Sequence record: MZ436830.1
Strand: one strand, 5' to 3'
Length of the DNA: 64,000 nucleotides
Source of the DNA: Escherichia phage JK1
Below, piece by piece: positions 4,616 through 18,789 of this stretch. The notes under the pieces were generated by a model. That model was not told the origin of the DNA, did not search any database, and worked only from the letters and a program-made list of their open reading frames with translations. Numbering within the stretch: the first letter of the stretch is position 1; each line of letters starts with the position of its first letter. Both the position numbers and the translations under genes were made by a program.

Positions 4616-4989
4616 TTAAATTTAATAGCTTGAAGAAGACTAATAATTCTCAAGCGACTTCTTTCATCTTTAACTGTAAAGGAAAGAGAGTCGCCAGATT
4701 TCATGGTAATAGTGCATTCAAAATCAAAATCTTCTGTGACTTCTTCGAAGAAGTCAAATTCTTCAGCATAAATTAGAACATTACTCTGCATACTGTGAAG
4801 AATTTTTCCGTTATTTCCAGACGCTGTACTAATCATCGTAACATTATGACCTTTCATATCTTCAACGATAAATTCGCTTGTAGATATTACAGCATTAATA
4901 GAACCATTCCTATAAATAGCAGACATTAGATATTTCTTTTCTTCGCCTTCGCGAATACGATATTTCTTACCGATTTTAAACATAATCAC
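4612..4989 (-). CDS. hypothetical protein
   Basis: 125-aa ORF, start overlaps stop of upstream gene. Confidence 0.5.
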   Translation of the reverse strand: MIMFKIGKKYRIREGEEKKYLMSAIYRNGSINAVISTSEFIVEDMKGHNVTMISTASGNNGKILHSMQSNVLIYAEEFDFFEEVTEDFDFECTITMKSGDSLSFTVKDERSRLRIISLLQAIKFK

Positions 4990-15169: not shown

Positions 15170-15406
15170 TTAACCACCTATTTCTGTAGGTGTAAACATT
15201 GCAGCATTCTTAGTTTTCCAAGTTGCTGCATCGGAAACTACATCAGAATAAGCTGCTTTTTCTGACGGAAAGATTTGATAATGAGAATCTGCAATACGGT
15301 GTTCATTTGAATATACATCAAATGCTACAGAAACTTCCATACCTTTAACTTCTTTGCCTTCACCTGCTGGATGAGTAAAGGTCTTGATGTTAACGAAACC
15401 ACCCAT
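15170..15406 (-). CDS. soc: small outer capsid protein Soc
   Basis: 78 aa; VNIKTF...HYQxFPSEKAAYS matches Soc; late promoter upstream, terminator downstream. Confidence 0.85.
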   Translation of the reverse strand: MGGFVNIKTFTHPAGEGKEVKGMEVSVAFDVYSNEHRIADSHYQIFPSEKAAYSDVVSDAATWKTKNAAMFTPTEIGG

Positions 15407-15437: not shown

Positions 15438-15445
15438 TATTTATA
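15438..15445 (-). promoter_or_regulatory. late promoter TATAAATA upstream of soc
   Basis: exact TATAAATA about 30 nt before soc ATG, AGGAG SD between. Confidence 0.6.
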
Positions 15446-15590: not shown

Positions 15591-15815
15591 CTAATAAATT
15601 CTTCTTTGGATATTTTCATTTGAATGCTCTATAATTAATTTTAAGGCTTCTTTACTGACAAAAATTTCATCAAGACCTTCTTCTACACCCCAATCAACTG
15701 CACGAAGCTGATTAGATAAGAGCTCGTATGTGAGCTCTTTGTCATAATTTTTAAATAGCTGGTCAATACGTTTCTTGTGGGCTTTCTTAAGCTGGCGTTT
15801 ATTTAAACGAGCCAT
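15591..15815 (-). CDS. small hypothetical protein
   Basis: 74 aa; TAATG overlap with gene 56. Confidence 0.45.
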   Translation of the reverse strand: MARLNKRQLKKAHKKRIDQLFKNYDKELTYELLSNQLRAVDWGVEEGLDEIFVSKEALKLIIEHSNENIQRRIY

Positions 15816-16333
15816 TAATAACCTCGGTCTTGACGAGCGAAGTTTTCAGCATTTTTCAAATAATAAAGTTTAAAGATTTCTTCAGCCGTAAGACCGAGAC
15901 CTTGGAACATGTTCAGAACGAAATGAAGAATATCAATCATTTCGAATTTAATTTCCAACTGGTCTTGTGGAGACAAATCAGTAATCAGAGTTTCACGTCG
16001 TTCACCATGTTGAGCTTTCCAAGGCTTCCATACAGCAGATGCATCTTTTTCACCATTGCTCATACCACCAAGAGAAGTCAATAGTTCGCGGAATTCATCA
16101 TCAATATAATCTTTCTGATTACGCAACCAATCAACAACTTCGCCTGCGGTAGCCAAATCATCAGGATGACGGTTATATTCAGGTTTATCTTTAGCTAAAC
16201 GAACCTGAAGAGATTTCTGCATATCAAGCATAACTTGCAGCGGGTCTTTTTCATCACCGAGAATATCCCAGTATTCATTTTGAGCTTTATCAGCGCCTTC
16301 AATCAGTTGTGAACATTCATTAAAGTATGCCAT
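15815..16333 (-). CDS. 56: dCTPase/dCDPase (dCTP pyrophosphatase)
   Basis: MAYFNECSQLIEG...; start trimmed to internal ATG to match the ~171-aa protein. Confidence 0.85.
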   Translation of the reverse strand: MAYFNECSQLIEGADKAQNEYWDILGDEKDPLQVMLDMQKSLQVRLAKDKPEYNRHPDDLATAGEVVDWLRNQKDYIDDEFRELLTSLGGMSNGEKDASAVWKPWKAQHGERRETLITDLSPQDQLEIKFEMIDILHFVLNMFQGLGLTAEEIFKLYYLKNAENFARQDRGY

Positions 16334-16367
16334 TATTTTTCCTTTCAATTCATGGGTTAGTAGATTA

Positions 16368-16392
16368 ATTATACAATAAATATATAAAGCAA
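16368..16392 (-). promoter_or_regulatory. middle promoter for gene 56 (MotA box TGCTTTA + TATAAT)
   Basis: TGCTTTA, 11-nt spacer, TATAAT. Confidence 0.5.
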
Positions 16393-16404
16393 TAAGGAGG
16401 ACAT

Positions 16405-16605
16405 ATGGTACAAAAATTAATGGCACTTGTTAATGCCATAAAAGGTAATAAAAAACGTATAGCTTTTACTATTTCTGCTACGGTAGGAATTTTACTCTGG
16501 AATTTTGTTTTATCACCAATTGCTATTGCTCATGGTGTTAATATTCCAGTAATTACTCTTGATACATTCGTAGATTTATCATTTGCTTTGGTTGGGTTAA
16601 TTTAA
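16405..16605 (+). CDS. small hydrophobic membrane protein (plus strand)
   Basis: 66 aa; perfect SD AAGGAGG 6 nt before ATG; convergent with gene 61. Confidence 0.45.
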   Translation: MVQKLMALVNAIKGNKKRIAFTISATVGILLWNFVLSPIAIAHGVNIPVITLDTFVDLSFALVGLI

Positions 16606-17630
16606 ATCTTAGCATATTTAGATAGCCGCATTTTAGCCATCAACCCTTGGGCAATATTATTTTTCATATATTCCATAATTTGTTCAGGGGTTGCACCTTC
16701 CTTTCTAATCATATCATTAACATCTTTTGATTTCCAGGGAGATTTATCCCAAAACATAACCCTTTCTCCTGCATCAACTAATTTAGTCATTCGCTTAATA
16801 GTGTCAGGATGACGAGGTTCATTATCTAAAACCCACACTCGTCTATCTTTAAATGGAACAACTTCTAGGTCTAATTGACCACCCGTAATAGCTATACCAT
16901 TTTCAATAAAAAGTGAATCTATAGGTCCTTCTAGAACATATACATCACCATCTTTAACTCGTTCGACTCCATAGATTTTTGTTGCTTCAGGATAAGCTTT
17001 GATGGTGATATATTTTTGAGGAGCATCTTTCTTTAATGCACGTCCTTGAAAAGACTCAGCTTTTCCATTAGCATTATAAATTGGAATAACAAGACGAGGC
17101 TCAGGTATTTCCTTTTTATATGTTCCCGGTGCTATGCTATTAACTAATTTAGGCCATTCGGTTGTAAACCAAAGATATTTCCATTTATCCTTTGGAATAC
17201 AACGAGCTTTTACATATTTTATAATTGGATGGTCTTCCGCCAATTTATCTAATCTAACACATGACGGAAGAGATTTAATTATTTTCTTTTCAGGTTGTTT
17301 AGGAAGTTCTTTAGGTTTTTCTACTGGACGACTTTTACCTTTTTCTTTTCTTATTTCAAAGATATACTCACGATATAAATCAGGTTCAAACTCCTTTAAA
17401 TATATTCCTATCGGTGCATGATAGTTACAGTTATAACAATGAATATTTCCTTCATTATTATCACCATAATACCATCCACGGGCTTTATTCTGGTCGGTTT
17501 TTGAATCTCCGCAAACAGGGCATCTAAACCGCAATTTAAAAGTTGAACTATTATTTACTTGTGTGAATTTAGGTAAATGAGCTAATGCACGGTATGCAAA
17601 CTCATTATCAATCCAAGGTATTGATGACAT
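16602..17630 (-). CDS. 61: DNA primase
   Basis: 342 aa; N-terminal zinc ribbon CPVCGD...CYNC and TOPRIM-type core. Confidence 0.9.
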   Translation of the reverse strand: MSSIPWIDNEFAYRALAHLPKFTQVNNSSTFKLRFRCPVCGDSKTDQNKARGWYYGDNNEGNIHCYNCNYHAPIGIYLKEFEPDLYREYIFEIRKEKGKSRPVEKPKELPKQPEKKIIKSLPSCVRLDKLAEDHPIIKYVKARCIPKDKWKYLWFTTEWPKLVNSIAPGTYKKEIPEPRLVIPIYNANGKAESFQGRALKKDAPQKYITIKAYPEATKIYGVERVKDGDVYVLEGPIDSLFIENGIAITGGQLDLEVVPFKDRRVWVLDNEPRHPDTIKRMTKLVDAGERVMFWDKSPWKSKDVNDMIRKEGATPEQIMEYMKNNIAQGLMAKMRLSKYAKI

Positions 17631-17632
17631 TT

Positions 17633-17797
17633 TTACTCTTCTTTTTCTTTAGATTCCTCTTTTTTCTTTTTAGGAATCTGTTCAGGACCTTTATTTACTA
17701 CAGCACCTGACGTTGTTCCAGTAGAGATATTTTCAGGATTACCACCTGAATCTCCAGCGACCATATCTTCTTTAATAAATTCTTTATATGTTTTCAT
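17633..17797 (-). CDS. small protein with CTS-like N-terminus MKTYKEFI
   Basis: 54-codon ORF below track cutoff; TAAtATG coupling with upstream gene. Confidence 0.35.
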   Translation of the reverse strand: MKTYKEFIKEDMVAGDSGGNPENISTGTTSGAVVNKGPEQIPKKKKEESKEKEE

Positions 17798-17842
17798 ATT
17801 AACCTCTATTCATAAAAGCATTAAAAATTTGGTCATCAATAG
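17795..17842 (-). repeat. 48-bp direct repeat spanning a gene junction (copy 1)
   Basis: 45/48 identical to 18153-18200. Confidence 0.6.
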
Positions 17843-18155
17843 ATGGCGCAGTAATATTTTCTGCATCATTTAGCAAATCATTAATTTCATCAGATAGCAT
17901 AACACATGTACCTTTATTTCCTGTAATTGTTACTGCACAATTACGAACGTTTTCTTTATCAAATTTTAGGTTAATATTTTCGTAGTGAAAATCCTTTAAT
18001 GCCGAATATATCTTTAAAATGAAATTGTCTTTTACTACAATAAACCCAACCTCACTATTAAAACGCGGTTCATGGAAACTGTAATAAACCTTTTCATCTA
18101 TAAAATCGTATGAAATTTTTTCCATTTTTAAATATGAAAATTCAGAACTATACAT
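17799..18155 (-). CDS. hypothetical protein (C-terminal IDDQIFNAFMNRG tail)
   Basis: 118-aa ORF. Confidence 0.5.
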   Translation of the reverse strand: MYSSEFSYLKMEKISYDFIDEKVYYSFHEPRFNSEVGFIVVKDNFILKIYSALKDFHYENINLKFDKENVRNCAVTITGNKGTCVMLSDEINDLLNDAENITAPSIDDQIFNAFMNRG

Positions 18156-18200
18156 ATTAACCTTTATTCATAAAAGCATTAAAAATTTGATCGTCAATAG
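18153..18200 (-). repeat. 48-bp direct repeat spanning a gene junction (copy 2)
   Basis: 45/48 identical to 17795-17842. Confidence 0.6.
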
Positions 18201-18789
18201 AAACTTTTACTTTAGGCTGTTCTTCAAACGGTAATTCATATCCACATATTACAATTTTGTGATCGATACCAAAATACACAGAAGCAATATTATTAATATT
18301 ATTTTCAGTGAAATCTAAATCAACATCAATATCTTTTTGACTAACGCTCAAAGGATAATTAATACGAATAATTCGATTATCTTTAACAAAGATTCCACCG
18401 ACATACTCTGTGCTGCGTTTAAAGTTTACACGTTTCCTAAATGAAAAATATTCAGGTTCTTTATGGGCTCGACTCATAGGGCTTAAAGTGTATTCCGAAT
18501 ATGAAATATCAAATCCTACACCTTCAATATGAGCCAAAGTATCATGATTAAACCAATTATAATCGTATGCCAAATCCATTAAATTGTAATATGTGAAAGG
18601 CACCGGATTAACATCATATGTTGTACCTTTAAAATCTGCCCAGGCAACGATTTCGTTATCTTTAACAATTACAAAAATTGTGCCAATAAGATATCCACGG
18701 TTATTTTCATCAGGTGTTATATTATAACATTGTGCATCAGGAAATTTACCGTATTTAAACGGTGGATTTTTGTGCATATAATAAATCAT
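18157..18789 (-). CDS. hypothetical protein (C-terminal IDDQIFNAFMNKG tail)
   Basis: 210-aa ORF. Confidence 0.5.
   Translation of the reverse strand: MIYYMHKNPPFKYGKFPDAQCYNITPDENNRGYLIGTIFVIVKDNEIVAWADFKGTTYDVNPVPFTYYNLMDLAYDYNWFNHDTLAHIEGVGFDISYSEYTLSPMSRAHKEPEYFSFRKRVNFKRSTEYVGGIFVKDNRIIRINYPLSVSQKDIDVDLDFTENNINNIASVYFGIDHKIVICGYELPFEEQPKVKVSIDDQIFNAFMNKG

Follow-up and report, generated by a model that had tools for sequence, protein, structure and literature searches.

The window analyzed here is a stretch of 64,000 nucleotides from Escherichia phage JK1 that represents the early region of a Tequatrovirus, with its first base aligning to the start of the rIIA region of the phage TadeuszReichstein (Bas43). 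Bas43 is the nearest relative, and the last 800 bases of the window are not placed in the Bas43 record. Minus-strand ORFs of at least 60 amino acids (aa) take up 91% of the window. Among the stretches of at least 150 nucleotides (nt), 14 are uncovered, that is, no minus-strand ORF of at least 60 aa covers them, and one of these is the gap at 16334-16601. This gap is flanked on the left by gene 56, which encodes dCTPase (15815..16333, minus strand), and on the right by gene 61, which encodes the DNA primase (16602..17630, minus strand); both genes were identified by profile matches (phrog_173, E 1e-46, and phrog_47, E 8e-107, respectively) and by the annotation of relatives. The stretch between genes 56 and 61 is 98.9% identical to its counterparts in Bas43 and in vB_EcoM_C2-3.

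The gap is filled exactly by a plus-strand ORF at 16405..16605, with an ATG start, 66 codons and a TAA stop, which encodes a 66-aa product (MVQKLMALVNAIKGNKKRIAFTISATVGILLWNFVLSPIAIAHGVNIPVITLDTFVDLSFALVGLI). The position originally given as the start, 16334, is correct as the first base of the intergenic gap, not as the start of the ORF. The ORF is preceded by the Shine-Dalgarno sequence AAGGAGG (16394..16400, plus strand), which had been recognized as such in the original prediction; the spacing to the ATG is, however, 4 nt (acat) rather than 6 nt. A Shine-Dalgarno sequence of the GGAG type is retained before the ORF in all lineages examined. At the other end, as had been noticed, the ORF is convergent with gene 61, and the two stops overlap: the TAA of the ORF (16603-16605) and the stop codon of gene 61 (16602-16604, minus strand) lie together inside the palindrome TTTAAA.

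The length of this ORF alone is weak evidence for a gene because the window contains 34 plus-strand ORFs of at least 60 aa that start with ATG. Sixty-four plus-strand ATG codons open at least 50 codons, and a Shine-Dalgarno-like motif was found in 4 of these. Only 2% of the ORF overlaps minus-strand coding sequence in antisense, whereas for the other three starts with a Shine-Dalgarno-like motif, the overlap amounts to 83-100%. The claim that this is the only convincing plus-strand gene in 64 kb thus survives scrutiny, in that a single one of the four starts is not antisense to minus-strand coding. Within positions 75,700-139,200 of the Bas43 record (two stretches, from rIIA onward), this ORF is also the sole annotated plus-strand coding sequence. 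No other gene of the 64-kb early region is read from the late strand.

The ORF product matches the phrog_2024 profile with an E-value of 1.4e-30, residues 2-66 being aligned with positions 1-65 of the 65-position profile; this full-length match, the genomic position, and the conserved core described below are the features of membership in PHROG 2024, and all are present. A tblastn search with the product retrieved 692 phage records, about 500 of them at 80-100% identity (Tequatrovirus; 92% for the T4 copy, 89% for T2) and another 190 at about 50% identity (Mosigvirus and relatives, about 50% for RB69 in particular), with a completely identical (100%) copy in phage teqskov. None of the copies examined shows a frame disruption, and at every locus inspected, the ORF adjoins the primase gene. 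The pairwise dN/dS values (Nei-Gojobori) range from 0.15 to 0.38; between genera, dS is saturated, with pS of 0.57-0.83 compared to pN of about 0.32. The combination of saturated synonymous sites with low dN/dS shows that it is the translated frame that evolves under purifying selection. Taken together, the ORF call, the phrog_2024 match, the tblastn results, the dN/dS values, and the annotation in relatives identify the ORF as a real protein-coding gene, the local copy of the PHROG 2024/RB69ORF029w family, and bear out the original prediction that a lone but genuine plus-strand gene encodes a small membrane protein here.

The gene is not new because the family has already been catalogued, albeit as hypothetical proteins. 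In relatives, the ORF is labeled as hypothetical protein, putative membrane protein or RB32ORF030w, or carries a note referring to RB69ORF029w. RB69ORF029w and RB32ORF030w belong to the same family and share with the JK1 ORF the length, the opposite strand, the position between genes 56 and 61, and the stop overlapping that of gene 61, with no difference of kind. What the present analysis adds is that the family extends to Dhakavirus, Jiaodavirus, Gelderlandvirus, and Moonvirus. With a profile restricted to close members, an exhaustive HMM search yielded 6 representative clusters. Positional analogues are found in the same interval of Dhakavirus EcWhh-1 (66-aa ORF) and of a Klebsiella T4-like phage (63-aa ORF), and when the profile included these analogues, 114 protein clusters of 61-69 aa were detected. 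A tblastn search started from a divergent member reached Jiaodavirus, Gelderlandvirus (S16), Moonvirus (CF1), and Edwardsiella phage PEi20. Across the family, members with as little as 18-30% identity still retain the frame and the length (63-69 aa). A scan of IMG/VR produced 7 loci, all of types already represented.

Searches of Pfam and NCBIfam at E-values up to 10 gave no family match for the ORF product, the best hit of the family profile in the PDB sequences was a meaningless one to YejA (E 0.17), and no paralogue of the ORF is present in the whole Bas43 genome. A Foldseek comparison with viral structure models recovered the ortholog itself (E 3e-7) and two 63-aa proteins of T4-like phages at E 0.07-0.2, the rest being noise; these weak structural look-alikes belong to Enterobacter phage CIP9. 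The small membrane ORF is absent from the 56-61 interval of Karamvirus EnA02 and of Krischvirus KFS-EC. In the former, the interval contains a same-strand ORF of 94 aa, and in the latter, a 590-bp stretch without annotation.

Two signals of the opposite strand lie within or beside the ORF. The first, read from the sequence, is a predicted middle promoter for gene 56 (16368..16394, minus strand) composed of a perfect MotA box TATTGCTTTA (16394..16385), an 11-nt spacer, and the -10 element TATAAT (16373..16368). The box and its spacing from TATAAT agree with the middle-promoter consensus, (a/t)(a/t)(a/t)TGCTTtA at 12 +/- 1 bp from the -10 element (PMC2988021), and in the fPS-65 record, a middle promoter is annotated at the equivalent site before gene 56. 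The second signal, detected by a pattern scan and folding, is a terminator-like hairpin (16410..16439, minus strand) that consists of a stem-loop at 16439..16420 followed by UAAUUUUUGU. This hairpin with a U-run (-8.9 kcal/mol, z -2.4) is located 3' of gene 61, where it lies opposite codons 6-12 of the ORF, looks like the terminator of gene 61, and carries a terminator annotation in fPS-65. An equivalent hairpin is absent from RB69 and therefore cannot account for the conservation of the ORF; the minus-strand terminator was, accordingly, ruled out as the cause of that conservation.

The proximity of these signals, the lack of annotation of this stretch in the T4 reference, and the abundance of plus-strand ORFs for which length means little would all be compatible with a chance open frame in a non-coding spacer that is conserved for the sake of the minus strand. 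We regard this explanation as highly improbable: it is already contradicted by the substitution pattern, with dN/dS well below 1 at saturated synonymous sites, and by the persistence of a frame of nearly constant length in copies with as little as 18-30% identity. Furthermore, RB69 lacks the hairpin, and the promoter spans only the 30 nt upstream and not the ORF.

Comparison of the interval between genes 56 and 61 across T-even phages places the ORF beside gene 61 in four local architectures. The simplest order, 56-ORF-61, is that of the window and is found also in RB69, JK45, phiC120, Dhakavirus EcWhh-1, and Klebsiella phage Lion. The order in T4 is 56-dam-ORF-61; Yersinia phage fPS-65 has 56-dam-g033c-ORF-61, where g033c is an extra 186-aa ORF; and Yersinia phage YenM_P8 has 56-ORF-homing endonuclease-61. 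As judged from these gene orders, the ORF is kept in the same place across several genera whatever is inserted nearby. The 56-61 interval itself is an insertion hotspot in which the small ORF has been spared by every insertion.

The T4 ortholog is an intact 66-aa ORF at 17738..17938 (plus strand, NC_000866) between dam and gene 61, preceded by GATAAATA and AAGGAGG. The 309-bp stretch between dam and gene 61 that holds this ortholog is unannotated in NC_000866, AF158101, and K03113. T4 is among the most thoroughly annotated viruses, and yet a conserved gene under selection is missing from its reference records; with the gene being conserved in several Tevenvirinae genera, the identification of its unannotated T4 copy is another addition of this work.

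The T4 record also confirms that dam resides in the 56-61 interval of T4, as the original prediction had it. That no methyltransferase ORF of the DPPY type exists in the window proved correct as well: the best tblastn match of T4 Dam has an E-value of 0.32, and DPPY does not occur in any frame. A Dam homolog or a DPPY motif is also missing from the part of the Bas43 genome outside the window, so the phage probably lacks Dam altogether. The original prediction implied a connection between the ORF and the missing dam, which does not hold because T4 carries both, and neither is the dam-less 56-ORF-61 arrangement unusual, given that RB69, phiC120, Dhakavirus, and the Klebsiella T4-like phage, which represent the other genera examined, have the same order. 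T4-type dam DNA was found in only 184 phage records, compared to about 500 records at the Tequatrovirus level that contain the ORF, which makes dam look like an accessory gene inserted between gene 56 and the ORF and means that the ORF is no replacement for dam. With Mosigvirus, Dhakavirus, and the Klebsiella phage all showing 56-ORF-61 without dam, the dam-less arrangement is probably ancestral. The absence of dam is, then, ordinary here: dam is an apparently accessory cassette, and most relatives do without it.

The presence of dam in the T4 interval and its absence from the window might suggest that the ORF belongs to a cassette that replaced dam in this phage, as the original reading implied. 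The probability of such a replacement is negligible: the co-occurrence of the two genes in T4 refutes it, fPS-65 and other dam-carrying phages have the ORF too, and in the other genera examined, the ORF is there without dam. The T4 Dam shares with the ORF product the intergenic neighborhood in T4; however, the two proteins are unrelated, are encoded on different strands, and differ in distribution.

In T4, the early and middle transcripts are all of one polarity, and late transcripts can have either polarity; the T4 late promoter is a bare TATAAATA box at -13 to -6, and among the 50 listed late promoter sites, 32 are perfect and 9 have A at -13, which is the commonest variant (PMC2988020). In the window, the early and middle polarity corresponds to the minus strand. 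Late transcription is, therefore, the only route of expression of the plus-strand ORF that fits the T4 biology because every early or middle transcript is read in the other direction. A scan of the plus strand for sigma-70 promoters revealed only weak matches at background frequency.

The A(-13) variant of TATAAATA, namely AATAAATA, is located at 16375..16382 on the plus strand, ends 22 nt before the ATG of the ORF, and is a candidate gp55-dependent late promoter. The predicted transcription start would be near 16388, so that the Shine-Dalgarno sequence would lie in a leader of about 17 nt. The prediction draws on the rarity of the box and on its retention upstream of the ORF in all contexts examined. 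The heptamer ATAAATA occurs 5 times per strand in 64 kb, compared to about 27 occurrences estimated from the base composition. The box NATAAATA is found 20-30 nt before the ATG in every lineage examined, though the flanks differ: it takes the form AATAAATA in the window type, Mosigvirus, and Dhakavirus, GATAAATA in T4 and fPS-65, and CATAAATA in YenM_P8 and Klebsiella phage Lion. The consensus T at -13 is present in none of the lineages examined, and the G of T4 and the C of two lineages are rare variants. In the window, the box is placed within the spacer between the MotA box and the -10 element of the predicted gene 56 promoter, in the 71-bp intergenic stretch, so that two promoters of different temporal classes would be packed back to back.

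In the 166-kb Bas43 genome, NATAAATA is preceded at -13 by T in 33 cases, by A in 13, by G in 5, and by C in 5. Downstream of five of the Bas43 copies of AATAAATA, a Shine-Dalgarno sequence and an ORF come within 75 nt, against a background of 7%. One of these is the ORF under consideration; the other four coincide, by coordinates, with the genes annotated as prohead protease inhibitor, holin, endonuclease VII, and a tail-sheath completion protein. We take these four genes to be T4 inh, t, 49, and 15, respectively, all of which are late or late-boosted. In the genes with A(-13) late promoters, AATAAATA is followed by a Shine-Dalgarno sequence and a start codon within 12-35 nt, and the ORF shows the same layout; the ORF family differs from these genes in that position -13 is G in the T4 copy and C in two lineages, and late expression of the ORF is a prediction.

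Given that NATAAATA is kept before the ATG in every lineage and that AATAAATA is the commonest variant of the late promoter, we infer, fairly strongly, that the ORF is a gp55-dependent late gene transcribed from AATAAATA at 16375-16382, with the start near 16388. RNA polymerase directed by gp55 would transcribe the ORF late in infection from this box, and the message would be translated from the strong Shine-Dalgarno site. The conserved late-promoter box NATAAATA, which predicts late expression, is a further element that this analysis adds to what has been known of the family. An HMM scan for late promoters in RB69 reported 31 sites, none of them before RB69ORF029w (Nolan et al. 2006). Searches of the literature on the ORF, on T4 ribosome profiling, on unannotated T4 genes, and on T4 transcription-start maps yielded no transcript, ribosome-profiling or proteomic evidence for this gene.

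Late transcription of this strand could, in principle, matter primarily through the RNA, with a transcript running antisense into gene 61 and damping primase synthesis late in infection, and with the ORF being secondary. The convergence with gene 61 and the overlap of the stops would suit such a role, as would the failure of a pattern scan to find a plus-strand terminator downstream of the ORF as far as 17800. Nevertheless, we consider it unlikely that RNA is the main product because the amino acid sequence itself is under purifying selection, a strong Shine-Dalgarno site is present in all lineages, and in YenM_P8, the ORF is intact even though a homing endonuclease gene parts it from gene 61. 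An antisense role could accompany that of the protein, yet it leaves the conservation unexplained.

We also considered a reading akin to type I toxin-antitoxin modules, in which a small hydrophobic peptide is paired with an antisense transcript that overlaps it, and set it aside: the "antisense" is just the read-through region from gene 61 to gene 56, and the gene, far from being sporadic, is kept in several genera.

Two perfect matches to TATAAATA elsewhere in the window are of separate interest. The one at 15438-15445 (minus strand) is located just upstream of soc (15170..15406), a virion gene within the early region; it gives a positive example of a late promoter from the window itself. The one at 4911-4918 is the sole perfect match on the plus strand, lies inside a minus-strand gene, and is not followed by a Shine-Dalgarno sequence or an ORF; it could be a late promoter in antisense orientation or have arisen by chance.

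Turning to the product, a single transmembrane helix is predicted for codons 19-42 (16459..16530, plus strand) from the Kyte-Doolittle profile, the AlphaFold2 model, the TMHMM result for the RB69 ortholog, and the charge distribution and insertion scale. The Kyte-Doolittle means over 19 residues are 1.6-1.87 for residues 19-42, and residues 47-66 are hydrophobic as well. The first 18 residues make up an amphipathic, basic stretch (KGNKKR), with a net charge of +5 over residues 1-20, and the C-terminal part has a net charge of -2, so that the positive-inside rule is obeyed. On a crude insertion scale, the helix at residues 19-42 receives, in most members of the family, a marginal score of +0.8 to +3.6 kcal/mol. 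On average, the last 24 residues are hydrophobic, but they include the conserved acidic residues D53 and D57; on the same crude scale, this part scores +4 to +9 kcal/mol. The AlphaFold2 model, which is of moderate confidence (mean pLDDT 76, from 8 sequences), contains helices at residues 2-13, 16-42 (mean pLDDT about 80), and 52-62 (11 residues). In RB69ORF029w, TMHMM predicts one helix, at residues 21-41 (Nolan et al. 2006).

These results agree with the earlier expectation of a membrane protein to the extent that transmembrane prediction gives at least one hydrophobic helix, at residues 19-42 and at the matching position of the RB69 protein. Of the two hydrophobic segments that had been proposed, both are indeed visible in the Kyte-Doolittle plot; the second one, however, probably is not a membrane span because of its two conserved acidic residues and its unfavorable insertion score. 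Two membrane spans are thus probably not the topology. Most likely, as far as the moderate-confidence model and the charge distribution can be relied upon, the protein crosses the membrane once. The product would insert into the inner membrane by a single transmembrane helix (about residues 19-42), leaving the basic N-terminus in the cytoplasm, and the short acidic tail of about 24 residues would face the periplasm.

The family alignment reveals a conserved core, W-N-x4-P-x5-G-x3-P-x4-(D/E), at codons 32-53 (16498..16563, plus strand). Among the aligned members, which include those from Tequatrovirus, Mosigvirus, Dhakavirus, and the Klebsiella T4-like phage, W32, N33, P38, G44, and P48 never vary and position 53 always carries an acidic residue; the ORF product has all the core residues, with D53 at the last position. 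The core extends from the outer half of the helix into the juxtamembrane tail and would, therefore, be positioned at the periplasmic edge of the membrane. This clustering of invariant residues suggests that the protein specifically contacts another membrane protein close to the periplasmic face. The predicted single-span topology with a conserved periplasm-proximal motif is likewise new in this analysis.

A small protein with predicted late expression and two hydrophobic stretches on the Kyte-Doolittle plot might also be a two-span hairpin with both termini inside, that is, a holin or a pinholin-like lysis protein, and in UniRef/BFVD, the OE5505 ortholog is indeed labeled "Holin". We find this quite unlikely. 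The second stretch, apart from its conserved acidic residues and high insertion cost, is modeled as a helix of only 11 residues, and TMHMM finds one helix in the RB69 ortholog. The protein ends in a hydrophobic sequence, ...SFALVGLI, with no charged C-terminal tail and no basic residue past position 18. The neighbors of the ORF are the genes for dCTPase and primase, not for an endolysin or spanin; the holin gene t and the endolysin gene e are elsewhere in Bas43, and holin T is already encoded in these phages. Finally, Pfam and NCBIfam yielded no holin match even at E 10.

Taken as a whole, the evidence makes it reasonably likely, in our assessment, that the ORF is a small conserved Tevenvirinae gene, located on the "late" strand by the 3' end of the primase gene and unrelated to dam, that encodes a late, single-span inner-membrane protein. 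The antiholin RI and holin T of T4 are single-span envelope proteins with the N-terminus inside and the C-terminus outside that control lysis. The ORF product is predicted to have a similar disposition, single-span with a periplasmic C-terminus, and the Bas43 holin gene has the same predicted late promoter variant as the ORF. In contrast, there is no sequence or fold similarity between RI or holin T and the ORF product, so that this is an analogy and not membership. The periplasmic part consists of about 70 residues in RI and about 160 in T, compared to about 24 predicted for the ORF product.

Tentatively, the product could have a partner in the late envelope program, in lysis timing or inhibition (holin T, RI, spanins) or in membrane integrity. 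A more specific and more doubtful proposal is that it is a component of the T-even late envelope that would, for example, modulate the timing or inhibition of lysis by holin T and RI through the WN..P..G..P..(D/E) motif. No lysis locus known from classical T4 genetics maps between genes 56 and 61. Should both late expression and membrane location be true, T-even phages would have one more conserved late protein that acts at the envelope.

Apart from the ORF, the window contains, in the interval between 61.1 and sp, two adjacent minus-strand ORFs of 118 and 210 aa (17799-18155 and 18157-18789) with a common 13-residue end, SIDDQIFNAFMN(R/K)G. Bas43 has only the shorter of these two ORFs. The shared end suggests that the pair arose by tandem duplication.
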